DNA of 64,000 nt from an uncultured virus (IMG/VR IMGVR_UViG_3300040801_004110) (IMGVR_UViG_3300040801_004110); one strand, 5' to 3'; shown: positions 2 through 63,352, numbered from the stretch's first letter. A program made the numbers and translations. The notes: a model not told the origin generated them from the sequence alone.

Positions 2-337
2 AATGATATATTAGAAAGCTATACACCAAAAAAACCTATATATGGATATCTAATCAGAGTAAGAAATAGGTTCGAAATATTAAAAAATGGAGAGCTTTAT
101 CATTTATATGTATATGGAGATTTAATAACAACATTTACTTATGATAGGGATGGTGATTTATCTCTATATATTAGAGATATATCAGAGACTTCACTTTATT
201 ATAATATTAAAAGCTACTACAGTATTACATTTAAATCGTCTAGTATTTATTTCTATCGAGACCTAGAATCTTTTTTGTATACTTACTTAACTAACTCTAT
301 AAAAGAACAACATAATGAACAGCATCAAGGAATTTAA
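2..337 (+). CDS. Partial hypothetical protein (5' truncated by window), probably N-terminal RxxKL-tag family
   Basis: Open frame 2 (NDILESYTPKK...) to TAA at 335-337; overlaps next family member. Confidence 0.6.
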   Translation, partial: NDILESYTPKKPIYGYLIRVRNRFEILKNGELYHLYVYGDLITTFTYDRDGDLSLYIRDISETSLYYNIKSYYSITFKSSSIYFYRDLESFLYTYLTNSIKEQHNEQHQGI

Positions 338-677
338 AAGGCTAGTAAAGTTAAGTGAGGTGTTAGATAGTGATATTGATAATTCACTGTATGCCTTTCT
401 TAATAAAATTTCTAATGGTCAATTCGAAAAAATAATTTATGAGGGCGTAGAAGAAGAAGTTTATACCTATGATGATGTTGTTTGGTTTTATAGGATTAAT
501 GGTAAATTTAGGGAAACTGAAAATTTCTCACATGAATATAATAGACTTTGTGATGATAATTACTATCATGTAATAGATGATAAAACTTACGGTGATTCCT
601 TTGAGAGAGTATTAAATTCAGAAGTGTTCATAGACAATTATATTGATTATTTATTGTCCAAGCACAACTACAAATAA
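315..677 (+). CDS. N-terminal RxxKL-tag protein
   Basis: MNSIKEFKRLVKLSEVLD. Confidence 0.8.
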   Translation: MNSIKEFKRLVKLSEVLDSDIDNSLYAFLNKISNGQFEKIIYEGVEEEVYTYDDVVWFYRINGKFRETENFSHEYNRLCDDNYYHVIDDKTYGDSFERVLNSEVFIDNYIDYLLSKHNYK

Positions 678-678
678 A

Positions 679-1086
679 ATGATAGATAGCCATTATAAAA
701 ACTACATGAGGATAGCTAAGTTAGAAAAACTAGATGGTAACGATAATAGCTATACAAAAACATACGATTTCTTAAAAAAAGTATGTGAAGAATCCGAGGT
801 AACTTCAACGGATTTAAAAGGATCACGCTCAAGGATAGTAAATTTTGGATATGATGATTGTTCATTCCTTAATTTTTTTATAAATAGAGGGATAACTTCT
901 AGTGTTAAAATAGATTACTATTACTTTTATGAGAAAATAGATTTGTCTGAATATTTTAATAAAATAGATCTTTTAAATTACAAATTAACACAAGATTTTT
1001 ATATTGAATTTATAGATTATTTTGTTTCTAAAGTTCTTATTGTAAAATTAAATGGTGAAAAAATAGATATTAGGGTACATTTCTAA
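679..1086 (+). CDS. N-terminal RxxKL-tag protein
   Basis: MIDSHYKNYMRIAKLEKLD; start moved from 643. Confidence 0.75.
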   Translation: MIDSHYKNYMRIAKLEKLDGNDNSYTKTYDFLKKVCEESEVTSTDLKGSRSRIVNFGYDDCSFLNFFINRGITSSVKIDYYYFYEKIDLSEYFNKIDLLNYKLTQDFYIEFIDYFVSKVLIVKLNGEKIDIRVHF

Positions 1087-1088
1087 TG

Positions 1089-1541
1089 TTACACCACACA
1101 ATCTTTTCTCACATACATTGTTACTTCATCACTTTCTAGTATTTTAAATCCATCAATATCCTTTACTATTTCTTCGAGTATATTGTTGACTAATCTAGAA
1201 AGGGGAATTTCATCTTCTGAAAAATCAAATAGGTCACTGGCTTCAAATTCTATATCAAGTTCGTCCAGAAAATCCTCTAATTGGTATTCTTCTAAAGTGT
1301 CATCCATGTCGTAATCGCTTAAGTCTAATATATTAAATTTAGACTCATCAAAACTATATTCGTTTACTACTGAATCACCTCCATATATTATTTTATTTAT
1401 ATCAGAATACTTTTTTGCTAAACTACTAGATCTAGTTATCCATATATAATCACTTTCATTTGTTTTATCAGTTACACCTCTATACCACTTTTTAGAGTTT
1501 TCGGTTATGAACTGTTCTAATGTTCTAATTATTTTTCTCAT
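1089..1541 (-). CDS. CTS-like leader protein, ADP-ribosyltransferase-like
   Basis: Leader MRKIIRTLEQFITE; WYRG and WITRSSSLAKKY motifs. Confidence 0.6.
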   Translation of the reverse strand: MRKIIRTLEQFITENSKKWYRGVTDKTNESDYIWITRSSSLAKKYSDINKIIYGGDSVVNEYSFDESKFNILDLSDYDMDDTLEEYQLEDFLDELDIEFEASDLFDFSEDEIPLSRLVNNILEEIVKDIDGFKILESDEVTMYVRKDCVV

Positions 1542-1545
1542 GTTC

Positions 1546-1561
1546 TATATATTAATATATA
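1546..1561. promoter_or_regulatory. Bidirectional putative late promoter
   Basis: Perfect palindrome TATATATTAATATATA between two divergent leader-bearing genes. Confidence 0.65.
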
Positions 1562-1565
1562 CCGT

Positions 1566-2225
1566 ATGAAATATCTGAAAACTTTCGAAAACTACGAAGA
1601 GTTATTTGATTATAACATGAGTGACATAAAAGCCATCTTAGAATTAAGAGGTTTAAATAACCCATCGATAGAATTCATTGGTGAGGGTAGCTACGGATCA
1701 GCATTTAAATTAAATGGTGATAAGGTGCTTAAAATAACAACTTTAGAGAATGAAATTTACTATGCTAACAAAATAAAGGATATATCCTCTGATAAAATAG
1801 TTAAAATATATGATGCTTTTTTCAATGAGTATTATGACATTGGATATAACGTGAAGAACCCATTCATAATTATGGAACACCTCGATACTGACATAGACCC
1901 ATCCCTTAGAAGGTTTGTAGATTATTTAAGTGCTAGAAATCCATTAAGTTCTAAAGTTAACACAGTAGAAAATGATGAGGTTATTTCTTATTTTAAAGAA
2001 TTACTTTATAAAGATGAGGATGAAATCTTAGAGTACTGGAATATTTATAAAGGTATTGTTAATGAGTGTTTAAAATATAACTTACCCATAGATGATCTAA
2101 GAGGAAATAACATTGGTTTGAGTAATGGCAATTATAAATTTTTTGACATATCTAACATACACACTTCTAAAGATTATGATTACAGTGATATAGATGTGGT
2201 CAAACACTATCCATATTCTTTATAA
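1566..2225 (+). CDS. CTS-like leader protein, protein-kinase-like fold
   Basis: MKYLKTFENYEE; GEGSYG, KVLK, IIMEHL, DLRGNNIG, FFD. Confidence 0.8.
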   Translation: MKYLKTFENYEELFDYNMSDIKAILELRGLNNPSIEFIGEGSYGSAFKLNGDKVLKITTLENEIYYANKIKDISSDKIVKIYDAFFNEYYDIGYNVKNPFIIMEHLDTDIDPSLRRFVDYLSARNPLSSKVNTVENDEVISYFKELLYKDEDEILEYWNIYKGIVNECLKYNLPIDDLRGNNIGLSNGNYKFFDISNIHTSKDYDYSDIDVVKHYPYSL

Positions 2226-3145: not shown

Positions 3146-3880
3146 ATGAAAAGGAAAGCATTTTTAGAGAAGATAAATGGTATGTGGTTAGACGACTTCG
3201 TTTACATATCTTTATTCCCATTGTATAACAGAGGGTTCGAAATTGTTGAATTTGATAGCGATGATTTAGAAAACACACTTAATCCTTCCAAGGAAGATAT
3301 AATTATCGGTAGTGTGCAATCAACTGAGTACTTCTTCAAAAAAATAGGTATGGAAATACCCAAATACCTTGGATACCCAGAATCACTAAAACCTTATATG
3401 GGTCGAAATGTTTACAAAACCAAATTTGGTGATATAGACTCAAAGTTTCCTTATTTTATAAAACCAAGTATTGGTGTGAAATCTTTCACAGGAACACTTA
3501 TAGAAAGCGAGGATACTATTAAATTTTTAAAAGACTTTGATAACTTAAACAATGATACAGAAGTTTGGTATTCTGATGCTGTTGATTTTATAACAGAGTA
3601 TAGATGCTTTGTACATAAGGATGAATTAGTAGGCATTAAAAACTACACAGGGGACTTTAAAGTATTTCCTGATGTAAGTGTTATAAATAATATGATAAGT
3701 GCTTACAAAGGCTCTCCATGCTCTTACACACTAGATGTTGGTGTAGACAACAATGGCAATACCTTACTCGTTGAGGTTAATGATATGTGGGCTATTGGGT
3801 CGTACGGACTAGATGGGAAAACATATGTTAGGATGTGTATTGATAGACTTATAGAATTAAAAGGGAAATATATTAAATAA
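3146..3880 (+). CDS. ATP-grasp domain protein (DUF4343/R2K-like)
   Basis: FIKP..KSFTG, EYRCFV, YTLDVG, LVEVND motifs. Confidence 0.8.
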   Translation: MKRKAFLEKINGMWLDDFVYISLFPLYNRGFEIVEFDSDDLENTLNPSKEDIIIGSVQSTEYFFKKIGMEIPKYLGYPESLKPYMGRNVYKTKFGDIDSKFPYFIKPSIGVKSFTGTLIESEDTIKFLKDFDNLNNDTEVWYSDAVDFITEYRCFVHKDELVGIKNYTGDFKVFPDVSVINNMISAYKGSPCSYTLDVGVDNNGNTLLVEVNDMWAIGSYGLDGKTYVRMCIDRLIELKGKYIK

Positions 3881-5911: not shown

Positions 5912-8314
5912 TTAAGATTCAACCTTACTTTTTGTTTTAGAGCCTGAACCATTAGGAAATTTTTTATCCCCTTTAATTTCTTTGATCCTTTCTCTTTCTT
6001 CTCTTTCTTCTTGCTCTTTTTTATATTCGATATGACTCTCTCTTAATTTTTCAACATCTTTGCTATTTGAAATAAGTGAATCAGCCATTAAGTTTAAAGA
6101 TAAGTTGATATAAGATCCGTACACCTCAACAAATTTGGTATTACCTTGGACTGATAAACCATATTCATCAGTATAATTGATCTTATAACAATGTTTAAAA
6201 GCTTCCTCATTAAGCATTTTATAAACACGTGAAAAGATATGTTCTTTGCTTTTACCATTTTCTGCAAAAGTGTAGATCTTAGGATTTGCATTATTAAGTA
6301 AAATCTTTTTCTTACTAGAACTCCATTTAACTAGGCATTTTCTATCGTTTTCTTCTGTGAAGTATATTTTATCATCTTCTTTTAAAGACCCAGTATTTCC
6401 ACCACCACTTCCAGAGTTACCACCACTAGAAGATTCGCCTTTTGGTGTGTCAACAGTAAAATCAAGCTCATACATTTTCTCACCAACTCTAACATGGTTT
6501 TTCCTTCTAGGATAGTGACTTGGGATTTGAGGTTTATATTCTTCTTCATCGATTATTTCTAACTCATTTATACCCTTACCGTCTTTACAAAGCTCCCTTG
6601 TGGTTATCTCATATATACCATCTTTAGTTGGGTGTCTTGTAATTGCCACACCAGGCTTTTCAGTCTCTATATCCATACCAGTTATTTGCTTTCTATCATC
6701 ATCAACAAATGTAACTTGTATTCTTTCATCAATAAGACCAACAGGAACTTTCTTTAAATATGAATTTTTATCCACTTTCGCATTTATGAAATCAGGAATT
6801 TTTCTTAAAGAAGATTCTTGAACGATTGCATATAACTTGTCAAGTTTAACCTTACTTTTTGAATCTGAATAACTCAGAAGTCCCATATCTTTCTCAGGTG
6901 GCATGAAGTCTTTAATATAAGAATTATACTCCTGTAAAGTTTCACAGTTATCAAAATTAGCTTTTTCCATAATAGCAGATATAGCCTTTTTCATAACATG
7001 TTGTGAAGATACATAGAAAACATTATCAATAGATCCAATGTCATCCATGTCATTAACATCATGTAGTACAATTTTCATTGTAACACTAGGGACCCATTTG
7101 TTTATTCTGTTAAAATCTTCTGGTTTTAAATATTTAAAAGAATTGCCTAAATACTCTTTCAATTTACTAATATTAACATCCCATTGTTTAGAGATCAATG
7201 GTCTATTAGCACCCATGCTTTCAAAGCTGTGACGAGATGCTTTATGGCTTTCAGCATAGCATATTTCCTCACTATACCTACCAGAGTTATTACTACCCAT
7301 GTCTAAATCATTGTAAACAAATAATCCGTGACTGTTGTAGTCAGTGATATCCTGAATAGTCTTATGACCATAGTAGTATGGTTTTGTAATTGATTCACCC
7401 TCTGGTTCATGTATCAATCTAAGCTTCTCTCTAGATAAAAGTGCTTTTTCTTTACCCTCATAGGTGATATTAGGCTGAACCTCAAGAGTTACAGTGGCGT
7501 TAAGATTAATAACCTTACTACCATCATCTTTAAATTGTACATTTTTAACAGGAATCTCAAATTTCTTTATACAGAAATCATCTCTCAGGGATACCTTTTT
7601 CATTTCAGCCTTGTGTCTAGATCTCAAAGGATTATTTTCATCAAAGCCAGTCTGGACATTATAATGTATCTTATTGCCTTTATTAACCCAATCTTGTGCT
7701 TGGTCTGTAAAGTTCATAAAATTATTTATACGTTTATCTGAAGTTGGGCTTTCACCACCTATTTTAAATAAAGGATTATCCAATCTATAAATGTAGATAA
7801 CAGTGAAATCTTGGTAGACATCTATTACTTTATCCCTTCCATTGTCATATAGAAGCTTGGCTAGAAAATCATTCCATTCATCAGACTTTACTTTTTCTTG
7901 TAATTTAATACCGTTTTTATCCTTAAAGGAAAGGCTTGTGGTGTTAATACCGTCCTGACACTTAGAATGTATTAAATATTCGGCTGTGTCTTTATTAACA
8001 GACATAACAGACATAACAGCCTTACCGCCACTACCCTGAACACCATTCCCACCAGTCTTATTAAACTCCATAGAATCTAACATAGATTGTTCGTCTAAAA
8101 AGGGCGTTCCGTTGTGTCCAAAAGCAACATAGGGCTTATTGTCCTTCATAAAGTGAAACATATGTACCATAGTTGCACCGTGGTCTTTGGCATTATGGAA
8201 GCACTCCCTGTATGTTATAGCTATGGGGTTTGTTAATTGATGAGCTTTCGCAGCATACAATCTTTGTTGATCCATTGTTGATGTGTAGACCTTCTTTTTT
8301 CTTGGTTTATTCAT
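5912..8314 (-). CDS. Large divergent GHKL/MORC-like ATPase
   Basis: ECFHNAKD, GHNG, GVQGSGGKA Bergerat-like motifs; Gly/Ser linker; charged C-terminus. Confidence 0.6.
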   Translation of the reverse strand: MNKPRKKKVYTSTMDQQRLYAAKAHQLTNPIAITYRECFHNAKDHGATMVHMFHFMKDNKPYVAFGHNGTPFLDEQSMLDSMEFNKTGGNGVQGSGGKAVMSVMSVNKDTAEYLIHSKCQDGINTTSLSFKDKNGIKLQEKVKSDEWNDFLAKLLYDNGRDKVIDVYQDFTVIYIYRLDNPLFKIGGESPTSDKRINNFMNFTDQAQDWVNKGNKIHYNVQTGFDENNPLRSRHKAEMKKVSLRDDFCIKKFEIPVKNVQFKDDGSKVINLNATVTLEVQPNITYEGKEKALLSREKLRLIHEPEGESITKPYYYGHKTIQDITDYNSHGLFVYNDLDMGSNNSGRYSEEICYAESHKASRHSFESMGANRPLISKQWDVNISKLKEYLGNSFKYLKPEDFNRINKWVPSVTMKIVLHDVNDMDDIGSIDNVFYVSSQHVMKKAISAIMEKANFDNCETLQEYNSYIKDFMPPEKDMGLLSYSDSKSKVKLDKLYAIVQESSLRKIPDFINAKVDKNSYLKKVPVGLIDERIQVTFVDDDRKQITGMDIETEKPGVAITRHPTKDGIYEITTRELCKDGKGINELEIIDEEEYKPQIPSHYPRRKNHVRVGEKMYELDFTVDTPKGESSSGGNSGSGGGNTGSLKEDDKIYFTEENDRKCLVKWSSSKKKILLNNANPKIYTFAENGKSKEHIFSRVYKMLNEEAFKHCYKINYTDEYGLSVQGNTKFVEVYGSYINLSLNLMADSLISNSKDVEKLRESHIEYKKEQEEREERERIKEIKGDKKFPNGSGSKTKSKVES

Positions 8315-9576: not shown

Positions 9577-10308
9577 ATGGAAATAAAATTAATAAATGGT
9601 GAGTGTTTAGAAGAAATGTCTAAAATTAAAGATGGTAGTATTGATATGATACTTGCTGATTTACCATATGGCACAACTAGTAATAAGTGGGATTCTGTAA
9701 TACCGTTTGAACCTCTATGGGAACAATATTGGAGAATATTAAAACCAACAGGCGTTATAGCATTAACTGCTAGTCAGCCCTTTAGCAGTGCTTTAGTGAT
9801 GAGTCAACCTAAATGGTTCAAACATGAGTGGATATGGATTAAAAATAGAGGAAGTAATTTTGCAAATACAGTAAGAGAACCAATGAAAGAACATGAACAG
9901 GTTTTAATATTCAGCAAAGGCAAATGGACTTATAATAAGCAAATGCAGGAAAGAACAGGCGCAGGTGCTAGCAGAGTTAAATACGAGTTAAACCATAAGA
10001 GTAAAAGCGAGAACTATAGAGATTTTGAGGGAAGAGAAAAAGTAAAAATGCCAAAATTAAGAGTACCTTCTACATGGCAAAAATTTAACACATGTACAAG
10101 CAAGTTACACCCAACAGTTAAACCATTACCTCTCTTTGAATATATGGTAAAGACTTACACTAACGAAGGTGATACTGTATTAGACAATACCATGGGAAGT
10201 GGAACTACAATGATTGCATGTATGAACCTTAACCGAAATGGTATAGGCATAGAACTTGATAAAAAGTATTTTGATGTTGCTCAGAAAAGAGTCAATGATA
10301 ACAAATAA
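9577..10308 (+). CDS. N6A/N4C DNA methyltransferase (beta class)
   Basis: GECLE, ADLPYG, HPTVKP, VLDNTMGSGTT, GIELD. Confidence 0.92.
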   Translation: MEIKLINGECLEEMSKIKDGSIDMILADLPYGTTSNKWDSVIPFEPLWEQYWRILKPTGVIALTASQPFSSALVMSQPKWFKHEWIWIKNRGSNFANTVREPMKEHEQVLIFSKGKWTYNKQMQERTGAGASRVKYELNHKSKSENYRDFEGREKVKMPKLRVPSTWQKFNTCTSKLHPTVKPLPLFEYMVKTYTNEGDTVLDNTMGSGTTMIACMNLNRNGIGIELDKKYFDVAQKRVNDNK

Positions 10309-10792: not shown

Positions 10793-11335
10793 ATGGAAAA
10801 GATAAAAAAAATAAAAACCTTATCAGAATTTTTAAATGAAGATATTAAAATCGATAATATAAATGATGATTTTTGGAAGTGGTTTAAAAATTCTAATTTA
10901 AAAGAAAATGATAAACCAATCGTTTTTTACCACGGAACAAAAACAAATTTTGATTCTTTCAAACCAAGTAAAAGTGTAGGTAATCAAGGAGAGACAGATC
11001 AAATAGAAGGAATATACTTTACAACCAATAAAGATGCAGCAAGGTTCTTTGCTTTAGGTGACGATGATAGGTTCGTAAAAGAAGTATATCTATCAATACA
11101 AAATCCTTACTATGCTAAAGATATGAATGAATTAAAACATTCTTTAAACACAAACCTCTTAGCAGATGTTAATAAAAAGCTAGTAGATAAAGGATATGAT
11201 GGACTTATAATAGATAAAGGGTTTTATGCAAATGGTGGACCATTTACATTATACTTACCATTCTATCCCAACCAAATAAAGTCAATAGACAATGATGGGA
11301 GTTGGGATGTAGATAACAATAACATTTATTCTTAA
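10793..11335 (+). CDS. CTS-like leader protein, ART-PolyVal-like ADP-ribosyltransferase
   Basis: KIKTLSEFLNE; FWKWF, FYHGT..F..F, GIYFT, GYDG, NQIKSI; TAATATATA at 10780. Confidence 0.75.
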   Translation: MEKIKKIKTLSEFLNEDIKIDNINDDFWKWFKNSNLKENDKPIVFYHGTKTNFDSFKPSKSVGNQGETDQIEGIYFTTNKDAARFFALGDDDRFVKEVYLSIQNPYYAKDMNELKHSLNTNLLADVNKKLVDKGYDGLIIDKGFYANGGPFTLYLPFYPNQIKSIDNDGSWDVDNNNIYS

Positions 11336-12106: not shown

Positions 12107-12433
12107 ATGGAATATACTGTAAATGGATATGAGATGCTAGTTGGTAACAAATATGCATGGATGAAAAGATATATCTATCAAGACACAGACAAACATTATT
12201 ATTATACTGTTTCCTTTAATAGCCTTTATGAAAACCAGGTTGAGTATTATCCTAAAGGTGGGCTAGTATCTATTTCGAGTCTAAATGATAAAATAGAAAT
12301 GAAAGGTGATATCCGTTTTGCAGAGACACTAGTTGATGCTATAAAAGATGCTAATGGTTATGAAATATCAACAGCTAATATATTACCTGATAAATATAAT
12401 AGAAGTAAGAAGCTTAGTGAAATATTGGATTAA
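12107..12433 (+). CDS. C-terminal RxxKL-tag protein
   Basis: Ends YNRSKKLSEILD. Confidence 0.75.
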   Translation: MEYTVNGYEMLVGNKYAWMKRYIYQDTDKHYYYTVSFNSLYENQVEYYPKGGLVSISSLNDKIEMKGDIRFAETLVDAIKDANGYEISTANILPDKYNRSKKLSEILD

Positions 12434-12814: not shown

Positions 12815-13065
12815 TTATTATCTATCCAATTACAGACTCTCCCAATTTGATTATCGGTTAATTCGGTATCTAAATCTTCTAAGACTCTATCAATTATCTT
12901 ATCCCAGTAAATGGCTAGTATTCTGTGATGATCACTATAATTATAATGGCTATCACCTACACTTTTATAATGCTCAAACCAATGGTCTACCATATCAAGG
13001 ATTTCTTCATCAGTAAACTTCTTGCGTATAACACAAGGTAATTTATTAATAACAAAACTATTCAT
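12808..13065 (-). CDS. Hypothetical protein
   Basis: Operonic ORF. Confidence 0.6.
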   Translation of the reverse strand: MNSFVINKLPCVIRKKFTDEEILDMVDHWFEHYKSVGDSHYNYSDHHRILAIYWDKIIDRVLEDLDTELTDNQIGRVCNWIDNNY

Positions 13066-13478
13066 TATATCTCTCCTTTATATTTCATATATACATAATA
13101 ACTTATCTCATCAGAAAGGACTTCACTTTCTTTAAATTCCCCATGTGGGAATTTATCACTAACTATATCTGATATTAATGATCTGGGATTGTCATGTTTA
13201 CCTAATATATCAAATTCATTTTTAAGAACATCCAAAACCATCTTTCTAGAACATCTCACAAAAGGATGTTTAAACTTGAACATGTATAAATCATCTTTAA
13301 AATAAAATACATCATCGGGATAATCCCCATGTGTCCACTTTTTCAAGCCTGAGGTTACATACGATACAAATTCATGCATTTCTTTAAAATCATCACTGAT
13401 TGGTCTATCTAAAATCTTTGATAGCTTAACTTGTCTTTTATAATCTTTATAGTCCATTTCTTTAGATCCAACCTTCAT
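13065..13478 (-). CDS. N-terminal RxxKL-tag protein
   Basis: MDYKDYKRQVKLSKILD (start may be 13457). Confidence 0.8.
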   Translation of the reverse strand: MKVGSKEMDYKDYKRQVKLSKILDRPISDDFKEMHEFVSYVTSGLKKWTHGDYPDDVFYFKDDLYMFKFKHPFVRCSRKMVLDVLKNEFDILGKHDNPRSLISDIVSDKFPHGEFKESEVLSDEISYYVYMKYKGEI

Positions 13479-13845
13479 AATTCATCGACTCATCATCTCT
13501 TTCAACATTGTTAAATGTAATAACGCTATATATCGAAAATTTCCTATCAAAATTATCATTTATAAAACTACGAACAAATTCTTTTACATCATCATCTTCC
13601 ATAGTTACTATTCTTGTCATTATGGGAAAGTGTATATAATAAAAAGAAAACTTAGCTAATTTTTCACTTATGCTTAACATATGAATTCCCTTTTTGGTAT
13701 AAAATTTTACACACCCATCCTCACACACCTCATCTAATTTTAATAGCTTACTCATTATTTTATACATTATCATATAATCACCTTCTAAAGGTTTGTTTAA
13801 AATCTTTGATAACTTGATCTGTCTCTTGTAATCATTGTACTTCAT
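13462..13845 (-). CDS. N-terminal RxxKL-tag protein
   Basis: MKYNDYKRQIKLSKILNKPLEG. Confidence 0.8.
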   Translation of the reverse strand: MKYNDYKRQIKLSKILNKPLEGDYMIMYKIMSKLLKLDEVCEDGCVKFYTKKGIHMLSISEKLAKFSFYYIHFPIMTRIVTMEDDDVKEFVRSFINDNFDRKFSIYSVITFNNVERDDESMNYEGWI

Positions 13846-14695: not shown

Positions 14696-15049
14696 TTATA
14701 AAATTTTACTTAGTTTTTCAGATCTAATTTTTACTTTATATTCAAGCACCTTTTTATGATATGTATTCTCTTCGAAATGTTCTCCATCTATATACCACAT
14801 TTTATCACCATCAAAGTACTCAACCGCAGGTCCATCTAATCTATGTTTCTCTCCATTTTTAATCCACATTTTTGTTCCAGTTGACCAAATAATTGCAGGA
14901 CCATCCTCTCTATGTAGATTACCATTTATCCACCATTCTTTATCACCATTGATACCTTCTAAAGCAGGACCATCCTCTCTATGTAATTCACCACGACCAT
15001 TGATCCATTTTTCTTTACCGTAAGAATCTATTATTTTTTTAGATTTCAT
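14696..15049 (-). CDS. LHREDGPA-repeat protein with C-terminal RxxKL tag
   Basis: Three HR(E/L)DGPA repeats; ends IRSEKLSKIL. Confidence 0.85.
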   Translation of the reverse strand: MKSKKIIDSYGKEKWINGRGELHREDGPALEGINGDKEWWINGNLHREDGPAIIWSTGTKMWIKNGEKHRLDGPAVEYFDGDKMWYIDGEHFEENTYHKKVLEYKVKIRSEKLSKIL

Positions 15050-30146: not shown

Positions 30147-30159
30147 AAGACTATATATT

Positions 30160-35431: not shown

Positions 35432-35435
35432 TATT

Positions 35436-37480: not shown

Positions 37481-37505
37481 ATAGTCTATTCTAAGAGGGT
37501 TTAAT

Positions 37506-37588: not shown

Positions 37589-37607
37589 ATATTTATTGAG
37601 ATTTTTA

Positions 37608-47861: not shown

Positions 47862-48233
47862 ATGGAGGTAAAAGAAAAAACACCATCTTATGAAAAATTC
47901 ACTAGGTATGCTAAATTAAATAGTATATTAGGTGGTGGTGATAATGATTTTTATAATTTGCTTATTGATATTAAGGATAACTTAGTTCTTGAAGAAGATG
48001 AAGCAGATTCATGTTCTGGATATGTTTCTAAGTACATTTATAAAGGTGATTATATATTTAGTGTTAGAATTAAAGTTAGTGAAGAAAAATGTGCTTTTAG
48101 TTTCAATGGGTCGGCTTATTTTTATGATATGTTGAGGGAATCTTACGGAAAAGAATATCCTCGATATAAAAATTATAGCAGAATGAATTTAATAGTGGAG
48201 AAATACCTTAATAATTATTTAGATATATGGTAG
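47862..48233 (+). CDS. N-terminal RxxKL-tag protein
   Basis: YEKFTRYAKLNSILG; paralog of 46709. Confidence 0.75.
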   Translation: MEVKEKTPSYEKFTRYAKLNSILGGGDNDFYNLLIDIKDNLVLEEDEADSCSGYVSKYIYKGDYIFSVRIKVSEEKCAFSFNGSAYFYDMLRESYGKEYPRYKNYSRMNLIVEKYLNNYLDIW

Positions 48234-48643
48234 GAAATAAAAATAAAAATAGACATAAGGATATGATCAAAAAAAGGTTAATTCCTTATACTGCTCATTA
48301 TTTTGCAGATAAAACCCAAATTTCAATTGGTGACAGTGGCGTAGTAAACATGTTAGCCATAGTTATTTTCGCTGATAGAGAAAAATTTTATAAAGGAACT
48401 TATAAAGTACATAATGAATTGCAGTGGGATTTATCTTCTTTTAAAGAAGGTTTAAAAAGAATGGATGTTTCTATAACAAAGATATCAGCTTTAGATAATA
48501 TTCTAGACAAGTATACATTTATAACCCATGAATTTATTGATAATACTTATACCAATAATGAGAATTACCCAGATGAGTTGAAGCGGATATTGGATAAAAG
48601 AATAAGAGATAATAAGTTAAAATACATATTAGGCAATAAATAG
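48227..48643 (+). CDS. C-terminal RxxKL-tag protein
   Basis: Ends IRDNKLKYIL. Confidence 0.75.
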   Translation: MVGNKNKNRHKDMIKKRLIPYTAHYFADKTQISIGDSGVVNMLAIVIFADREKFYKGTYKVHNELQWDLSSFKEGLKRMDVSITKISALDNILDKYTFITHEFIDNTYTNNENYPDELKRILDKRIRDNKLKYILGNK

Positions 48644-48951: not shown

Positions 48952-49275
48952 ATGAGTGCTAAAATATTTTTAAATCTTTCATTATCTGACTATAAAGGGG
49001 ATGTGAATATAGTGGTCTATTATGTATCTGGTGATTACCATATAGAGCTTAATTATCATTTTGTTCCTGATGCAGAAGATATTTGGAATTCTAAAGCAGG
49101 AGATCTTCATATAAAAAGTATTACATTAGAAGATTTCAAAGAAATTTCAAATTATTATACTTTGATTGATGTTGATGTGGATAAGAGTGTGAAAAGAATA
49201 ACAGTAGATGCTAAAAATTATTTAAGAACTATAAAATTAAAAGAATTAAAAATAAATAAGAATGGGCAAGGGTAA
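48952..49275 (+). CDS. C-terminal RxxKL-tag protein
   Basis: YLRTIKLKEL near C-terminus. Confidence 0.7.
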   Translation: MSAKIFLNLSLSDYKGDVNIVVYYVSGDYHIELNYHFVPDAEDIWNSKAGDLHIKSITLEDFKEISNYYTLIDVDVDKSVKRITVDAKNYLRTIKLKELKINKNGQG

Positions 49276-49618
49276 AGATATCACTATTTTCTATAGAAGG
49301 GAAGATAAAGGTACAGAAGACTTTATAAGCATGGATTATGATGGATATCCTTTTTTGGTTTTTTTGATACACAGTAATTATTTTATTTATATGAAAACTA
49401 ACAGGGATCTAAATGTGATTAAGTATATGGAATTAGAAAATAAAGATTTTAAAGAAATTCTTGGGCTTGATATTTTAAATGATGACTACAATATCCTTGA
49501 AGCCAAAAACGGATTTAGACTTTATGATAAAGAAATATATTCCAAAAGGGGTCTTGAGTTTCTAAGACAATTAAAGGTTGTAGAGAGAAAAATAAAATTA
49601 AAACATTTACCTATATAG
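49262..49618 (+). CDS. C-terminal RxxKL-tag protein
   Basis: Ends ERKIKLKHLPI. Confidence 0.7.
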   Translation: MGKGKDITIFYRREDKGTEDFISMDYDGYPFLVFLIHSNYFIYMKTNRDLNVIKYMELENKDFKEILGLDILNDDYNILEAKNGFRLYDKEIYSKRGLEFLRQLKVVERKIKLKHLPI

Positions 49619-50071: not shown

Positions 50072-50449
50072 ATGGATATTTATAAAGGAAATTTTTTATT
50101 TTACAAATACAAGTGCCAAATGAGTACAGATAGTGCAAGATCATCTGAAAGTATATTTAAGTTTTACTACAAAGGGGGGATTTGTATGTGTTTTACTGTA
50201 GTTATTAATAAACAAACAAATTGGTTTTCTATTTTAGAGCATTCTTCTATAGAATTTTCAGATTTATATACCGAGGTGGGTGAAGAGAGAACTGAAAACT
50301 TTGGATATAAGATGACATCTGGTGATTATCATCTTATAGATTTGGATAATGTAGATTCTGTCTATAAAAGAAGCATTTTAAAAGATTTGATGTCAGAAAT
50401 AAAAAATATTGTAAGGATTTATAAAATAGATTATTTATACGAAAAATGA
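50072..50449 (+). CDS. C-terminal RxxKL-tag protein
   Basis: Ends VRIYKIDYL. Confidence 0.7.
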   Translation: MDIYKGNFLFYKYKCQMSTDSARSSESIFKFYYKGGICMCFTVVINKQTNWFSILEHSSIEFSDLYTEVGEERTENFGYKMTSGDYHLIDLDNVDSVYKRSILKDLMSEIKNIVRIYKIDYLYEK

Positions 50450-50456: not shown

Positions 50457-50870
50457 ATGAAAGTAAAAGACCTCTCACACATAGAGCTTATAACTAATAT
50501 TATGTATTCCTATGAGAATATAACTTTATTTAAAGGAGATGAGAATGGAGATGGTAGCATCAGAATGGTTATTGTAATTAACCTAGATTCAAATTATGAT
50601 CCTTATGCATCTGATAGTATTGATAGTAAATGTGAATTATTCATGGGTGAATTTTTAATCAATAATGGGGATTGGCGTTTGGCTTCTTTTGTCAATTTAA
50701 TTCAGAAAATAGATACTTTTAAAAAAACGTATAATGCTATTGACGAATTACAAGATTTAAATTATGTAACATATATAAGAACTAATGAACATGGTTTAAA
50801 TAAGGAATTTGTTGAGAAAATGGTAAAGGCAGGATACAGAAGATATAAATTAGATAAAATAAATTTGTAA
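50457..50870 (+). CDS. C-terminal RxxKL-tag protein
   Basis: Ends YRRYKLDKINL. Confidence 0.75.
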   Translation: MKVKDLSHIELITNIMYSYENITLFKGDENGDGSIRMVIVINLDSNYDPYASDSIDSKCELFMGEFLINNGDWRLASFVNLIQKIDTFKKTYNAIDELQDLNYVTYIRTNEHGLNKEFVEKMVKAGYRRYKLDKINL

Positions 50871-51352: not shown

Positions 51353-51688
51353 ATGGTAGTTATTTTTTACAAAAATACACCAAGTATAGCAAACGATAAA
51401 CGGTTTATAGAGCTTTTAATATACAATGGATTTTATAACTATATAAGAATAGTTGAATCTTTTAGTGAAAAAGACAGTTATGAACATGCATTCATAACAA
51501 AAGATAAATTCATTAGTAAACTCGGTATTAATAATATAGATGAGATTTTATTAGGGAATCCTGCTAAAGATTCTTATAATTCCTTTCAGATGTATGATGA
51601 AGAAGGGTATACACCAAAAATGAAAGACCTTCTAGAAGAAGTTAAAAAACTATCTAGGATTAAAAAAATAAAAGACTTTATCTTATGA
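51353..51688 (+). CDS. C-terminal RxxKL-tag protein
   Basis: Ends SRIKKIKDFIL. Confidence 0.7.
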   Translation: MVVIFYKNTPSIANDKRFIELLIYNGFYNYIRIVESFSEKDSYEHAFITKDKFISKLGINNIDEILLGNPAKDSYNSFQMYDEEGYTPKMKDLLEEVKKLSRIKKIKDFIL

Positions 51689-54816: not shown

Positions 54817-54966
54817 ATGAAACATTTAGAAACATTTAGTGTATTTGAGAAAAAGAAAAATGGGTGGAGCAATAAGTACAAAAGAAGTATTGACTGTAAT
54901 AATCCAAAAGGCTTTTCACAGAAGCAATATTGTAAAAGAAAAAATAAAGAAAAATCAAGTAATTGA
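54817..54966 (+). CDS. CTS-like leader microprotein (49 aa, not in ORF track)
   Basis: MKHLETFSVFE-KKKNGWSNKYKRSIDCNNPKGFSQKQYC; TAATATATA at 54804. Confidence 0.75.
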   Translation: MKHLETFSVFEKKKNGWSNKYKRSIDCNNPKGFSQKQYCKRKNKEKSSN

Positions 54967-54993: not shown

Positions 54994-55263
54994 ATGAAAC
55001 ATTTGCAAATATTTGAAAACTATAACGAAGAAAAACCACAGATGGCATCGATAAGAATTGAGGTTAAATTAGATGGTGAAGTAATTCCACATCAGACAAT
55101 AGATACTGTGTATAAAAAAGACAATAGTGATATACAAGGAATATGTGATTTCATTAAAACACTAGTTCCTGATGCTGATAGGATTCTTGTGACAAAATCA
55201 GTATATAATGGTGTAAGTGGTACTTATATGGAAATGGATAGCTGTTCACATTTCGGCAAATAA
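54994..55263 (+). CDS. CTS-like leader protein
   Basis: MKHLQIFENYNE. Confidence 0.7.
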   Translation: MKHLQIFENYNEEKPQMASIRIEVKLDGEVIPHQTIDTVYKKDNSDIQGICDFIKTLVPDADRILVTKSVYNGVSGTYMEMDSCSHFGK

Positions 55264-59147: not shown

Positions 59148-59855
59148 CTACTGTATATTCTTTATAGATTTAGTATAATAGTGTTCTTCCTTTTCTATGC
59201 CTATATACTTCCTATTTAATTTTTTACAAACTAAACCAGTAGTCCCATACCCAAAGAAGCAATCTAAGACAACATCACTTACAGATGTAAATTTACTTAT
59301 AAAATGTTCAGCAACTTCTTCTTTCATAACCGCTTTGTGATCTTTGGGCATCTTTGAATTGACAGAAGTGGTAATAATGTTTTTCGTATATGTTGTATTT
59401 GATTTTAGACTACAATTACCTAATATTATAAAGTACTCTACTGCATTGGTGACACTCTTACCACTTGCTGGCATGGGATTAGACTTTTCCCATATATGTA
59501 TATCCACTATACTTTTATCAAACATACCAATAAGGTTATATACGTCTTTCCTATTATAATAATTAGCTTGGACGTTATAGAAAACATGCTTTTTAGATAT
59601 TCTTAATAGTTCATTTATAACATCCATATTAAGCTGTAGCCAATTCTCATTTATATCTTTAAACTGTTTATACTTATCATTTCGTTTACGATTATATGGT
59701 GGGCTAGTAAAAGAATAATCTACACTATTAGTATCCATGAGAGGTAATATACTCATACAATCTCCATTAATAATACTTCCATTTACATCAGTGGAGTTAG
59801 TATTAGATTCTAATATGTCTTTGAAATTATTACTTTGTAGGCACATGCTATTCAT
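59148..59855 (-). CDS. DNA methyltransferase, probably N4-cytosine (beta class)
   Basis: GDCM, TSPPYN, HKAVM, VLDCFFGYGTT, YIGIE. Confidence 0.88.
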   Translation of the reverse strand: MNSMCLQSNNFKDILESNTNSTDVNGSIINGDCMSILPLMDTNSVDYSFTSPPYNRKRNDKYKQFKDINENWLQLNMDVINELLRISKKHVFYNVQANYYNRKDVYNLIGMFDKSIVDIHIWEKSNPMPASGKSVTNAVEYFIILGNCSLKSNTTYTKNIITTSVNSKMPKDHKAVMKEEVAEHFISKFTSVSDVVLDCFFGYGTTGLVCKKLNRKYIGIEKEEHYYTKSIKNIQ

Positions 59856-59906: not shown

Positions 59907-60584
59907 TTATTTCTTTATTTCTTCTGCAAGACAAACATCTCCATATTCATCAATTAGTTTTTGCATATCATCAAATGATATATAAGCGAATCCTTTATTG
60001 CCCCAATTTCTACCCCAAGAATTTTTAATTCTGAACATTCTTTTTTCAGTGTTAACACCATTAACAACATAAGCATGACCTCCTAACCTACTTCCTCTTG
60101 GTTTTATAATTCCTTTATCATCTGGAAAAGACATTTCTGAATACCAAGTTGTCCCAACTAAGACAGGGGCGGTAGTTAGTATAGCTAGTGCCATTGTCTC
60201 TACATCCTTTGTCCAATTATATGCTCTAATATAACCCTCCTCTACTAAGACCTTAGCCCCTGATCTAACAGAAGTATCGTCATAATCAGAACCCCTCCAC
60301 TTATCTACTTTCTTACACCTTTCATAAAATACAGTAGGATCGATAATGGGTGGGTCTATTTTGCTTTGTGTTATGCTCCCATCTTCTAGCCAGTGAAGCC
60401 AAGAATAAGATATGGACTCAGGTTTATCACCTTGGTCACCCCACCATCCATTAGACCAGTAATACTTGAAATGTCTATCAGTGCTTTTATCTTTAAGCAA
60501 ATCTTTTATTGAGTGTTCCTTATCTTTTTCATCTGGTATATAAGTTCTACCTAGCCTTTTTTTAATAGCTGTCTTTTTGTCCAT
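59907..60584 (-). CDS. Papain-like (C1) peptidase fold with Ser at the nucleophile position
   Basis: DQG..PESISYSW, GGHAY, KNSWGRNWG; TAATATATA at 60605. Confidence 0.8.
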   Translation of the reverse strand: MDKKTAIKKRLGRTYIPDEKDKEHSIKDLLKDKSTDRHFKYYWSNGWWGDQGDKPESISYSWLHWLEDGSITQSKIDPPIIDPTVFYERCKKVDKWRGSDYDDTSVRSGAKVLVEEGYIRAYNWTKDVETMALAILTTAPVLVGTTWYSEMSFPDDKGIIKPRGSRLGGHAYVVNGVNTEKRMFRIKNSWGRNWGNKGFAYISFDDMQKLIDEYGDVCLAEEIKK

Positions 60585-60875
60585 ATAACAATATTAATTT
60601 TCTGTATATATTAAAAATAATTCATATATTTGCAAAATGGAAAAAGAAAAAATATATATATCGTATTTGATATCAAACATAGAAAAATTTGACACTAAAC
60701 ATCTTTTGATGTATTTGGATAGTGAAATATCTTTTTGTGAAATGACCGACCTTATAGATAAAAGCAATTCATATATCACCAGTTACGAGAAGTTCTTAAA
60801 AAAAGATATCTGCTAATAATACGATAAATTAAATTATCATATTTTTAGCAGATATCTATTTGTTTAAATATGTTA

Positions 60876-61382
60876 TTATTCAGCTACCTCGAAATACATC
60901 TTAGGTTCTGATGTCACATTATATATGTAATCACCACACTTTACAAGCAGTGCATTGTTCCCATAGTACTTGCTTCTCATACCTTCTACACTACCTGATG
61001 TGGAAAAACTAGGAAACCCTTTTAATACTTCACACTCATCTTCATCTAGCTCTTTAACAGGGTATTTTTTGCCTTTCAATTCAAAATCGTAACCATATTT
61101 TTCTTTGGCTTCTTCCCATCTTGGTGCTAGCTCTTCGTTTACTAAACTTTCATTAGATCCGAGTGATGCCTGTAAAGCACCTACCATAGCTCCATAATCT
61201 TTAACATACTTAGAAGTTAAACCATTAACTGTTGCTTGTGCTTTTTTAGGATCAAAATCTTCTCCAAAAGCTTTCTTAAGAACGGTAAAAGCATATTCTT
61301 TGAATTCTACATTTGAAGTTATTTCGTCATTCTTATCTTTTTTTGATTCGAAAAAAGATTTAAAGTTTTTTATATTTTTCAT
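60876..61382 (-). CDS. CTS-like leader protein, two modules
   Basis: MKNIKNFKSFFE; internal SLVNE; TAATATATA upstream. Confidence 0.75.
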   Translation of the reverse strand: MKNIKNFKSFFESKKDKNDEITSNVEFKEYAFTVLKKAFGEDFDPKKAQATVNGLTSKYVKDYGAMVGALQASLGSNESLVNEELAPRWEEAKEKYGYDFELKGKKYPVKELDEDECEVLKGFPSFSTSGSVEGMRSKYYGNNALLVKCGDYIYNVTSEPKMYFEVAE

Positions 61383-61415
61383 ATTATTATGTTATTTTTA
61401 TTATATATTATTTTT

Positions 61416-62303
61416 TCAGAACCATTTTAATGGTCTCATATTTTTTAACTTCCACTTCCCATTATCTTCTAGGGTAAAGTCAAATACATATGGATCAAAT
61501 TTTTCGATATATCCATCAAATTTTTTAGCTTTAATATCCTTTTTTAATCGTTCTATATTATTTCCATCTATTTCTAAAAAAACAATATTTTTTAGACTAA
61601 CTTCCACATTACCTATTACAATATCTTTGTATATTATTTTTCCACTTAAGTCTATTATAGAGTCGTGATATGAGTATTTTCTTCCACCTGGTATTCTTCC
61701 TCTATACATAACTACTTTTTTAGTCTCTATTTTCTTTATAGGATGGTTTATTAGGAAATTTACGAACTTATCATTTGATTCTATCTTAGATCCATCTTGT
61801 ACTAGTAAGTCTATCCCCTCTTTTTCTAACCTAGTTTTTACATCCTTTATAATATCTGGTAAAGTCCCATTTCTAGTCCCTAATGTTGTGAGGTAATTAG
61901 ATACTTTGCCACCACTCCAAGGATACACCATTAATGATTCAACTCGTGATTTTATTAAAACAACGTGCTTTATATATTTTCTTGCGTTTTGTATTATGGG
62001 GGTTTTTATTTGCTCTTCACGCTCATCAAAACCTTCGCCATTCCTTGAAAAATACCTAAATGGATTTATTTTATAATGGTTAGATAGTTTTTCTCCATCT
62101 AATACTAGCTTAAATATAGATGTGGGTGTGTCCCCTAAATAACTATTAAACATTTTATCCCTAGAAGTAGATATCCTACCACCACCACCTTTATATGACC
62201 TTATAGTATTACTTTGTAGAACAAATTTAAGTTTTTCATAATCTAGAACATGATACAAATCGCCTATGTGTTTACCTTCGTTAATACTTTTTAAATACTT
62301 CAT
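61416..62303 (-). CDS. CTS-like leader protein, possibly ART-like
   Basis: MKYLKSINE; LYH, ISTSRD, ExEE. Confidence 0.65.
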   Translation of the reverse strand: MKYLKSINEGKHIGDLYHVLDYEKLKFVLQSNTIRSYKGGGGRISTSRDKMFNSYLGDTPTSIFKLVLDGEKLSNHYKINPFRYFSRNGEGFDEREEQIKTPIIQNARKYIKHVVLIKSRVESLMVYPWSGGKVSNYLTTLGTRNGTLPDIIKDVKTRLEKEGIDLLVQDGSKIESNDKFVNFLINHPIKKIETKKVVMYRGRIPGGRKYSYHDSIIDLSGKIIYKDIVIGNVEVSLKNIVFLEIDGNNIERLKKDIKAKKFDGYIEKFDPYVFDFTLEDNGKWKLKNMRPLKWF

Positions 62304-62304
62304 A

Positions 62305-63066
62305 TTATCTCATGTTTTTACCTAGTATGTCCTCTTTGTACATCTTTCTTTTAACTTCCTTTTTCCAAGCATTATAATCATGATTATTCATTTTTTTCTT
62401 AATACTTGATAATGATGGATTTAAATATAACATATCCTCAAATGATAAATCATCCCAAATATCTTCGTTGTCAAGTTTTAACTGGTATATGTTTTGAATT
62501 ATTGCATATATTTCAAAGTATAGGCTATTAACATTATCATGTTTAGCTTTCTTAAGTTTCTTTCTAACAGTTCTGTCTTTTAACATTTTAGTTATATGAC
62601 TATTATTCATAGTATCATCGAGCCAATGGGCTAGCTCATGCCTTATGGATGATTTTATTCTGGTTGGCGAAAATTCTAATTTTATCTGTGGGTGTTCCTC
62701 AGTTGCTTTAATTACACTTCCATTTTTATATTTGTTAGTAAAATCAATCGCACTTTTGCTAACTTTAACTGAAATAGTAGATTTGGATGTATGTGAAAAA
62801 ATTTTTGGTCTATAATAGTTTCCATTTGATGTACCACCATAATCATTCAAGTGAATATAACAAGGATTTAACATATGTGCTTCTTTACACTTATTTGACT
62901 TTAGTTCACTTGAATAAATAATTTTCTTCGCAAACATCCCATCTCTTATCTCACCCGTTTTCATTACTTCCTCAATATCTTCTTTGAAAAAGGAGTATAA
63001 AAAATTAACATCTATATCTATATCATAATGTATTTTCTCTGTGATAAATTCATTAAATTTTAACAT
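62305..63066 (-). CDS. CTS-like leader protein, HExxH metallopeptidase-like
   Basis: MLKFNEFITE; IRHELAHWLD..EIYA; TAATATATA at 63084. Confidence 0.7.
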   Translation of the reverse strand: MLKFNEFITEKIHYDIDIDVNFLYSFFKEDIEEVMKTGEIRDGMFAKKIIYSSELKSNKCKEAHMLNPCYIHLNDYGGTSNGNYYRPKIFSHTSKSTISVKVSKSAIDFTNKYKNGSVIKATEEHPQIKLEFSPTRIKSSIRHELAHWLDDTMNNSHITKMLKDRTVRKKLKKAKHDNVNSLYFEIYAIIQNIYQLKLDNEDIWDDLSFEDMLYLNPSLSSIKKKMNNHDYNAWKKEVKRKMYKEDILGKNMR

Positions 63067-63109
63067 TTAAATTATTTTTATTGTATATATTAAAATATAG
63101 TATTACTTT

Positions 63110-63352
63110 TTGAATATGGGAAATTTCGAATATATAAAATTAATAAAAAAAGATATAGATAAAATGTCTGTGGGTGAAGTAATAGACTATATTTATTACT
63201 GTAGTAAATCATCTCCACGTGAATATCTAATAACACATTCAACAGATTCGGGCATAAGGGATATAGCAAAAAACGAAAGGCATCTTAGATGTGAAAAAGA
63301 TGCCCTTATATTAAAATTACATAGACTAGATAAACTAAGCCAGATTATCTAA
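63110..63352 (+). CDS. C-terminal RxxKL-tag protein
   Basis: Ends HRLDKLSQII. Confidence 0.65.
   Translation: MNMGNFEYIKLIKKDIDKMSVGEVIDYIYYCSKSSPREYLITHSTDSGIRDIAKNERHLRCEKDALILKLHRLDKLSQII

Follow-up and report, generated by a model that had tools for sequence, protein, structure and literature searches.

The capsid targeting sequence of T-even phages is found at the N-terminus only, on proteins that are packaged, and is cut off by the prohead protease. In the available text of two reports it appears as a short shared terminal peptide that serves as an address on differing, fast-evolving phage accessory proteins (PMC3012670, PMC9026906). We describe here a helix with some of these properties in a stretch of 64,000 nucleotides (nt) from an uncultured virus (IMG/VR IMGVR_UViG_3300040801_004110), the whole of which we call the window: a basic helix of 14-16 residues, with the core R-x-x-K-[LI]-x-x-[IV]-L, at the N- or the C-terminus of small proteins (the bearers), which are encoded by roughly one in four genes of this 64-kb accessory region. 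As with the capsid targeting sequence, a short terminal peptide is common to otherwise different phage accessory proteins; unlike that sequence, the helix occurs at either end of the chain (17 of the firm copies are C-terminal) and is missing from a second class of proteins of this phage, which have a leader of their own.

Poxvirus ankyrin-repeat proteins, encoded in large paralog arrays, combine variable repeats with a C-terminal PRANC/F-box-like helical element that recruits one machine. The MORN-like proteins described below likewise consist of a variable number of repeats followed by a conserved helix; in contrast to the poxvirus case, the setting is prokaryotic, and the motif, which is far shorter, stands N-terminally on other folds as well; recruitment would be putative here. 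None of the 48 bearer proteins that were scanned against Pfam and PHROG had a PRANC or F-box match in Pfam. ClpX is said, from work by Flynn and by Neher in 2003, to use protease recognition and adaptor-tethering signals at either chain end. Such signals, which are read by one machine, resemble the helix in being short and terminal, N or C, but they are usually unstructured and are not alike at the two ends, whereas here the same helix is found at both ends and no link to a protease was found. MORN repeats, according to the available text of a further source, are known protein-binding modules, the grooves of which bind partner segments (MORN4-Myo3a, junctophilin-CaV1.1/1.2, SETD7), sometimes from their own chain, and the partners of SETD7 are basic (PMC12748787). 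Some of our proteins are predicted to form a hairpin-repeat sheet that may be comparable, and they are at most putative relatives of the MORN family.

Phage multigene families with a common terminal tag are a known kind of system; a single helix that is used at either end and across unrelated folds is new. A preliminary description of this DNA, made from the sequence, knew of no matching system, and in the literature covered (subscription journals lay mostly outside this scope) we found no description of the motif, of a docking helix in phage multigene families, or of phage MORN repeats; the exact motif strings returned only unrelated papers.

The motif and its confinement to chain ends

The window, which comes from a contig of 72,797 bases, is AT-rich (G+C 24-31% in 4-kb windows), and its small genes are closely packed over both strands, with neighbouring genes adjoining or overlapping by 4 nt. 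The gene set (n = 148) comprises 147 ATG open reading frames (ORFs) of at least 40 residues, selected by greedy choice, and the gene at 39923-40297; four gene starts were trimmed to an M-x-Y-K start. A 17-column motif matrix was iterated from 18 strict matches, and matches were classed as 12 bits or more and 8-12 bits, a firm copy being one of 8 bits or more. At 12 bits or more there were 37 matches: 23 have their first residue no further than 7 from the N-terminus, and the last residue of the other 14 is no further than 4 from the C-terminus; the four additional matches at 8-12 bits are all terminal, which gives 24 N-terminal and 17 C-terminal firm copies (41), and not one match of 8 bits or more in the 148 genes is internal. 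The terminal motif is real. Eight degenerate C-terminal tails, recognized in alignments or with an N-only matrix, contain parts of the motif only (in a cluster at 46-52 kb, in the AYKYL family and in gene 63116), and one further copy is in a MORN-like remnant without an ATG at 25762-25911(-). The preliminary counts (26 proteins beginning and about 27 ending with the motif) are thus roughly reproduced, with only the 41 copies being firm, and all of the examples quoted there are present at their genes and in the register described.

That the N- and C-terminal copies are the same thing in the same register is borne out by matrices built from one end only. With the matrix from the N copies, 6 non-N proteins scored at least 12 bits, where composition-preserving shuffles would give 0.13; with the matrix from the C copies, 10 proteins reached this threshold, where shuffles would give 0.11. 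A 14-column N-only matrix was also run over the 124 non-N proteins (13,733 windows). Its ten highest-scoring windows all lay within 7 residues of the C-terminus, and 16 of the 20 best windows were C-terminal, against a background share of such windows of 7.2%. These top 10 come from four body classes (MORN-like, 51685, 12107 and 48952); since paralogs are not independent of one another, it is fairer to count classes, of which there are four or more, and this still corresponds to about 0.072 to the fourth power.

The motif is a feature of the protein and not a DNA element. Synonymous codons at the conserved Y, K, R, L and I approximate the background usage of the remaining genes, and this freedom of codons at conserved residues indicates selection on the protein; the codon test found no nucleotide conservation at these residues beyond what the protein requires, as a translated DNA repeat or junction element would have. 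In a six-frame scan, 37 of the 38 windows of 12 bits or more lie inside called genes, and copies also stand on 4324, 14696 and 51685, none of which is followed by a gene in the same direction. A coupling signal at the RNA level was considered and rejected, because operon-end genes bear the motif too and the codons vary. DNA-level, RNA-level and chance origins of the motif are excluded.

The residue tally of the motif was made on 40 firm copies, which were chosen by the matrix itself: relative to R at position 0 (40 copies), K is found at +3 in 37, L or I at +4 in 38, I, V or L at +7 in 36, and L at +8 in 29. Two families, the N family and the MORN-like family, additionally have Y-K at -5/-4 (Y-5 and K-4 in 20 and 17 of 23 N-family copies and in 8 and 8 of 9 MORN-like copies); this pair is not near-universal in the other classes, and the AYKYL family has W at -5. 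The helix stops directly after I-L at all sites, with a stop codon following in most firm C copies and a D-K-P-L-x-G (D-x-P type) or G-G-G breaker in the N copies. Its mean charge is +2.4 to +2.7, and the bodies are acidic (approximately -0.04 charge per residue). On a helical wheel the shared residues span about 0-220 degrees, with hydrophobic residues at 0, 40, 120, 180 and 220 degrees and K/R between them at 80-140 degrees; the hydrophobic residues do not form one clean face, the criterion for membrane helices of the MinD/FtsA type being one hydrophobic face with flanking basic residues. We infer a basic ridge (K-4, R0, K+3) between two hydrophobic stripes, one of Y-5 with -1 and the other of L+4, I+7 and L+8. 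The remaining face has residues that are kept within families only (such as Y-2, V+2 and S+5 of the N family, where the MORN-like family has K, K and K), so that the helix would be divided into a shared and a family-specific face.

Bodies of the bearer proteins

The preliminary description spoke of about 50 unrelated proteins. This holds to the extent that at least four unlinked body classes, possibly up to about eight, bear the motif; it does not hold for the 24 N-bearers, which are one divergent family, or for nine C-bearers, which are one MORN-like family. BLASTP searches with the motif masked joined the nine MORN-like proteins and a few pairs and left 21 bearers single. With the motif removed, every N-group/C-class and C-class/C-class pair had a hhalign probability of 1.3% or less (the C classes compared were MORN-like, AYKYL, three subgroups of the 46-52 kb cluster, and 12107), in agreement with the earlier view that the bearers are not all one homologous family, and a 59-sequence profile of N-family bodies gave a probability of 0.3% or less against each C class. 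A circular permutation that would relate the N family to the C classes was not supported either: doubled C-class sequences searched with the N-family hidden Markov model (HMM) gave a best full-sequence expect value (E) of 0.036 (n = 16), and junction-spanning matches stayed below 3 bits.

Position-independence, another of the earlier claims, applies between families; within each family the end is fixed. The helix is inherited vertically within a family, at its fixed end, and between families it behaves as a module separable from the bodies, because the N-family core occurs without helix 1 and MORN-like bodies elsewhere have other tails.

The N family consists of approximately 120-residue alpha/beta proteins in 24 copies, in which the motif is helix 1:

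13065-13457, minus strand: N-family protein, N-terminal motif (MDYKDYKRQVKLSKIL), 41.0 bits; AlphaFold2 (AF2) helix 3-16
13462-13845, minus strand: N-family, N-terminal motif, 36.5 bits
32655-33023, minus strand: N-family, N-terminal motif, 38.3 bits
39574-39933, minus strand: N-family, N-terminal motif, 38.3 bits
39923-40297, minus strand: N-family, N-terminal motif, 38.3 bits
40294-40656, minus strand: N-family, N-terminal motif, 36.9 bits
40653-41069, minus strand: N-family, N-terminal motif, 37.7 bits
18957-19499, minus strand: N-family, N-terminal motif, 36.2 bits
19489-19896, minus strand: N-family, N-terminal motif, 34.9 bits
22009-22437, minus strand: N-family, N-terminal motif, 32.0 bits
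22484-22867, minus strand: N-family, N-terminal motif, 34.8 bits
22864-23238, minus strand: N-family, N-terminal motif, 22.9 bits
23242-23568, minus strand: N-family, N-terminal motif with degenerate end, 31.6 bits
26757-27137, minus strand: N-family, N-terminal motif, 27.9 bits
2648-2944, minus strand: N-family, N-terminal motif, 30.5 bits
2200-2619, minus strand: weak N-terminal copy, 9.6 bits
315-677, plus strand: N-family, N-terminal motif, 31.5 bits
679-1086, plus strand: N-family, N-terminal motif, 22.7 bits
12434-12814, plus strand: N-family, N-terminal motif, 25.1 bits
17467-17874, plus strand: N-family, N-terminal motif, 21.5 bits
18219-18581, plus strand: N-family, N-terminal motif, 23.9 bits
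46709-47047, plus strand: N-family, motif then G-G-G linker, 23.4 bits
47056-47457, plus strand: N-family, N-terminal motif without Y-K, 12.5 bits
47862-48233, plus strand: N-family, motif behind a 6-residue extension, 26.4 bits

These 24 proteins align colinearly in length, in a P-L-x-G or G-rich linker, in a second helix, in a Y-P..I-F-Y-x-K-D strand region and in a closing helix, and G/D/N-rich linkers connect the helix to the body in several members. When subgroup bodies were compared by profile, N1-N2 gave 89% (E 2e-6), N3-N4 a weak 8%, and the pairs N1-N3, N1-N4, N2-N3 and N2-N4 only 0.3-0.4%; that the four subgroups are one family follows from the colinear alignments and the whole-family profile search, not from hhalign. 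This search retrieved 58 proteins at E of 0.001 or less among 1.84 billion representatives, most of them of 100-150 residues, and in 32 of 48 external relatives the core of the motif (I-I-R-E-I-K-L-S-K-L-L type) is N-terminal by the C-only matrix. Two of the retrieved proteins, P0019 (588 residues, from a Cyclobacteriaceae metagenome-assembled genome) and P0027 (760 residues), have the N-family core in tandem, five units each, and all ten units begin at profile position 30-36, past helix 1 and the linker. Another long protein, P0054 (750 residues), has six reported N-family stretches, of which about four are credible, with a short E-S-R-I-N-L-K element before each unit.

The AF2 model of the N family has a predicted local distance difference test score (pLDDT) of 84 and a predicted template modelling score of 0.77, with the helix at a pLDDT of 93-97. 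Foldseek of this model against PDB gave no match at E of 0.001 or less, a wide VIA search gave a best Z of 3.7 with no SUKH chain listed, a sequence search yielded no match in PDB, and the ESM Atlas had no usable one. A single weak match to the SUKH (SMI1/KNR4) immunity proteins, of one of the 48 bearers to Pfam SUKH_5 (E 0.0057, 16.9 bits versus a cut-off of 27), is not borne out. In BFVD the model matches eight 'uncultured Caudovirales phage' proteins with probabilities of 0.87-1.00 (seven of at least 0.96) and template modelling (TM) scores of 0.38-0.58, and a ninth more weakly (probability 0.60); their accession numbers look similar, and they may come from one data set. These proteins were not reached by tblastn. 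The N family is a new domain family of about 120 residues without a solved-fold match, seen sparsely in phage-like contigs and in Cyclobacteriaceae tandem repeats.

The MORN-like proteins (nine copies and a remnant, 62 to 136 residues) are built from hairpin repeats, HREDGPA-type units in variable number, each of which has an acidic E-D pair:

31918-32178, minus strand: MORN-like protein, motif as the last 15 residues, 35.5 bits; AF2 helix 70-85
31730-31921, minus strand: MORN-like, C-terminal motif, 32.5 bits
32175-32504, minus strand: MORN-like, C-terminal motif, 35.9 bits
31401-31733, minus strand: MORN-like, C-terminal motif, 36.2 bits
30994-31404, minus strand: MORN-like, weak C-terminal motif, 11.1 bits
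23565-23819, minus strand: MORN-like, C-terminal motif, 29.1 bits
15046-15378, minus strand: MORN-like, C-terminal motif, 33.6 bits; top match of the N-only matrix
14696-15049, minus strand: MORN-like, C-terminal motif, 25.3 bits
4324-4512, plus strand: MORN-like, one repeat, C-terminal motif, 31.1 bits
25762-25911, minus strand: ATG-less stop-to-stop frame of 49 codons, MORN-like half repeat with the motif at its end, 18.4 bits

The last of these is a tenth MORN-like copy, truncated or oddly started. The AF2 model (pLDDT 93.8) has short strands throughout and one C-terminal helix, with a helix pLDDT of 89-95. Pfam returned no MORN family at E of 0.01 or less for the nine proteins and, as its only match, DUF6745 below cut-off (best 25.6 versus 27 bits); there was no match in NCBIfam or in a profile search of PDB sequences, and the one PHROG match, of 31401-31733 to phrog_27531 (unknown function), is weak (E 0.00038). 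VIA found weak likeness of the model to SET7/9 (Z 4.1; root mean square deviation 4.4, 76 aligned), junctophilin-2 (Z 3.7) and MORN4 (Z 3.6); it also found phage spike proteins at Z 4.8, so that the MORN matches are no better. Because Pfam gave no MORN match and the structural matches are weak, we name these proteins MORN-like and not MORN.

Among 32 external MORN-like relatives, four have the motif at 8 bits or more (one of the motif-bearing proteins is from a Psychroflexus torquis chromosome), and two more reach 6.5-6.8 bits. Other tails recur in at least 21 of the 32 (about 12 of the type ...A-E-I-E-x-L-L-G-Y..K-V-V-K, four K-rich, and five of two other types), and the remaining five end differently. 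The relatives of 31918-32178 in many metagenomes (P0065-P0097) share a common body that ends in '...W-W-L-N-G-V-E-Y-T-E-E-E-F' and continues into at least four alternative C-terminal tails, a comparison of sequences that shows small MORN-like phage proteins to swap their C-terminal tails. The tail of P0077 has a weak match to the NCBIfam 'YWSERL motif small protein' (E 5e-4, below cut-off).

The other C-terminal bearers are the AYKYL family (four members), a singleton, the cluster at 46-52 kb (about 10 bearer genes in three subgroups) and one small gene:

27650-27931, minus strand: AYKYL family, C-terminal motif with W at -5, 21.7 bits; alignment
27402-27653, minus strand: AYKYL family, weak C-terminal motif, 8.9 bits
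27140-27409, minus strand: AYKYL family, C-terminal motif, 21.7 bits
30740-30991, minus strand: AYKYL family, degenerate C-terminal motif, below 8 bits; alignment
12107-12433, plus strand: singleton body, C-terminal motif, 21.7 bits
46411-46728, plus strand: 46-52 kb cluster, C-terminal motif, 19.5 bits
47461-47850, plus strand: 46-52 kb cluster, C-terminal motif, 17.8 bits
48952-49275, plus strand: 46-52 kb cluster, weak C-terminal motif, 11.5 bits
51685-52032, plus strand: 46-52 kb cluster, C-terminal motif, 27.8 bits; N-only matrix 14.2 bits
45983-46414, plus strand: 46-52 kb cluster, degenerate C-terminal R..KL tail, alignment only
48227-48643, plus strand: 46-52 kb cluster, C-terminal R..KL..IL three residues before the end, HMM 12.8 bits; alignment
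49262-49618, plus strand: 46-52 kb cluster, degenerate C-terminal tail, alignment only
50072-50449, plus strand: 46-52 kb cluster, degenerate C-terminal tail, alignment only
50457-50870, plus strand: 46-52 kb cluster, degenerate C-terminal tail, alignment only
51353-51688, plus strand: 46-52 kb cluster, degenerate C-terminal tail, alignment only
63116-63352, plus strand: small gene, weak C-terminal R..KL..II tail, N-only matrix 5.2 bits

Transcription, neighbouring genes and distribution

The bearer genes had been placed in units with TAnnTTTG promoters. This sequence occurs 148 times in the window against 110 +/- 10 expected (0 of 100 shuffles reached 148), and 39 of the 148 genes have it at a distance of 5-80 nt upstream. 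It stands at the head genes of many bearer arrays (2648, 4324, 13462, 19489, 22009, 22864, 32655, 39574, and 41077, which heads the 40653 array), as described; it also precedes 31 of the 107 non-bearer genes, and for this reason the early expression of the bearers is something that we infer. The gene at 41077-41274(-) encodes a hydrophobic, probably membrane, protein of 65 residues, with a TATATTTG site 5 nt upstream, and stands first in an operon that continues with four N-family genes.

A second N-terminal leader, M-K-H/Y-I/L-K-x-F-E..., is common to about 20 genes, which include 15775-16398(-), 20094-20705(-), 20707-21237(-), 29640-30146(-), 10793-11335(+), 39229-39519(-), 41430-42083(-), 43177-43422(-), 44344-45045(+), 45060-45686(+), 54817-54966(+), 54994-55263(+), 60876-61382(-) and 1566-2225(+). 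Three of the second-leader proteins have ART-PolyVal ADP-ribosyltransferase domains (E 9e-22, 8e-17 and 1e-5). The earlier statement that no bearer also has this leader (which it likened to a capsid targeting sequence) proved correct: the helix motif is present in none of the second-leader genes, and the leader in none of the bearers. None of the genes with a leader of the M-K-H-I-K type has TAnnTTTG within 80 nt upstream, and from these sequence patterns the helix class and the leader class look mutually exclusive and differently transcribed.

The few recognizable genes are a set typical of a phage accessory or counter-defence region and include two DNA methyltransferases, the three ART-PolyVal ADP-ribosyltransferase domains, an R2K ATP-grasp protein, a GHKL ATPase, a papain-like peptidase and a nuclease. 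The R2K ATP-grasp protein (E 2e-38), the papain-like peptidase and the two methyltransferases are encoded at 3146-3880(+), 59907-60584(-), 9577-10308(+) and 59148-59855(-). The GHKL ATPase (35909-37480(+), 523 residues; HATPase_c_3 E 5e-22, PADLOC MzaB E 1e-23) is a defence-type ATPase within the phage accessory region. The largest ORF in the window (5912-8314(-), 800 residues) has no match in Pfam, PHROG, PADLOC or PDB sequences.

Megablast of the window found no matching GenBank phage, and tblastn against GenBank phages found no relatives of the bearers. PHROG has no match for 47 of the 48 bearer proteins or for 18 of 20 external relatives, the other two of which match families of unknown function weakly; PADLOC has none for the six bearers tested. 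Across PHROGs, Pfam, NCBIfam and PADLOC no bearer family matches above a curated cut-off, there being weak sub-threshold matches only. Protein scans of IMG/VR and a search of a genome collection gave no relatives, and IMG/VR pattern scans gave 0, 0 and 2 matches, the two being judged chance from ORF lists. A metagenome pattern scan (at least 119 loci) had no terminal or complete motif among the matches listed. DNA of the lineage was found in two studies: two DNA runs of one sample, labelled as a microbial mat metagenome, contain about 0.65 of the sampled words of window 30000-38000, and two DNA runs of the second study contain 0.10 of them; most of the stretch is in the two runs of the one sample only. 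Among RNA runs, none is listed as containing the stretch, and the one RNA run of the same sample has next to no words of it.

Possible roles of the helix

We assign a probability of roughly 0.4 to the reading that the two-faced helix docks many variable small proteins onto one shared partner. The family-specific face would pack against the body of its own protein, and this would account for the high confidence of the models; the shared face (aromatic -5, K-4, hydrophobic -1, R0, K+3, L+4, I+7, L+8) would dock onto a common partner, which might be a hub in the host or a machine of the phage. The docked proteins would be variable, small and probably early-expressed, and the scheme would resemble a conserved recruiting motif on variable binding domains, here the repeat-variable MORN-like proteins and the large, diverging paralog arrays. 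It is also possible, and we propose this more tentatively, that the phage has a linear-motif system of its own, in which a two-faced basic helix at either chain end was acquired independently by several families and has a single reader for about 45 variable early proteins; the MORN-like proteins of the phage itself could be this reader, as could a host hub or a phage machine.

When one N-family and one MORN-like protein were predicted as a pair (alignments A5 and A6, without controls), the ipSAE was 0.00 in both runs, which speaks neither for nor against binding. Several observations weigh against docking onto a shared partner. Neither the window nor any other source yielded such a partner. 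The end at which the motif stands never varies within a family, and its Y-K part is common to only two families; in the MORN-like proteins, moreover, the aromatic residue at -5 continues a family-wide '...YTEEE[FY]' element that precedes every tail type. The lineage is rare, with eight proteins at E of 0.01 or less in a search of 5.8 billion proteins. Finally, a helix pLDDT of 93-97 and 89-95 is unusual for a dangling tag, and the models suggest a helix packed on its own body rather than a free tag, perhaps a purely structural one.

A purely structural role is the likeliest of the alternatives, although we consider it doubtful. The helix would cap or pack on the body and have no common partner; families would resemble one another in it through ancient recombination where genes adjoin in tightly packed arrays, or because a proteome rich in K, I, L and Y converged on it. 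This would fit the high helix pLDDT in both modelled families, the fixed end within each, and the start of the helix in the MORN-like proteins, which belongs to the family-wide cap; the genes abut or overlap by 4 nt, so that their borders could shift. It would, however, require that a hairpin sheet and an alpha/beta domain, which are unrelated as folds, depend on an identical set of eight residues, and the N-family core is known without the helix while MORN-like bodies fold with other tails. The match between the two ends is also far above composition-matched shuffles, and no likeness at the DNA level points to recent transfer.

An unlikely arrangement is that the bearers bind each other, the groove of the acidic MORN-like sheet reading the basic helix, either its own tail in cis or the helices of the other approximately 35 bearers in trans, to give a hub or chains of early proteins. 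The precedent, as far as the available text of the source goes, is that the inner groove of MORN repeats takes up segments of partners, in one mode intramolecularly and with autoinhibition, and that the partners bound by the MORN repeats of SETD7 are positively charged (PMC12748787). The acidic bodies and basic helices, the weak likeness of the model to MORN sheets (Z 3.6 to 4.1) and the interleaving of N- and C-bearers in the same arrays are consistent with this; against it, the structural matches are weak and not MORN-specific, gene order has no fixed pairing of N- and C-bearers, and there is no direct evidence of such binding.

We regard it as distinctly unlikely that the helix is a degron or timer, read by a host AAA+ protease, an adaptor or a phage peptidase and imposing a common limited lifetime on early proteins. 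The motif is terminal, basic and hydrophobic at its end, the gene for the papain-like peptidase lies inside the window, and protease recognition and tethering signals are reportedly known at N- and C-termini; degrons, however, are usually disordered, whereas this helix is confidently predicted, and the lack of any protease link found also speaks against it. A role of the basic helix as an anchor, to the surface of the membrane or to DNA or RNA, is very unlikely. The charge of the helix and its Tyr and Leu/Ile would suit such a role, but its hydrophobic residues do not make a single face, a basic ridge lying between two stripes, membrane helices do not usually conserve single residues so strictly, and the acidic bodies also speak against it. 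An artefact, namely a translated DNA or RNA element at gene junctions (promoter, coupling signal or recombination site) or a chance product of composition, could appeal to the position at gene borders and to the low G+C content, and is refuted by the background codon variation, by the in-frame position in called genes, by the copies on genes without a co-directional downstream gene, by 0.1 shuffle matches versus 6-10 observed, and by unrelated metagenome contigs, where the half-motif had 16 ORF-borne matches (121 loci, none in two viral loci), none N-terminal and none complete.

If the helix is a docking motif, then it gives a handle on the targets of dozens of orphan proteins at once, and it would be a rare case in a prokaryotic virus of one linear motif active at either chain end. 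With bearers making up so large a share of the region, the reader of the helix would be central to the phage's treatment of its host. A linear-motif system of this kind, if true, would be the bacterial-virus counterpart of eukaryotic docking motifs and of the poxvirus families that join repeats to a recruiting motif.

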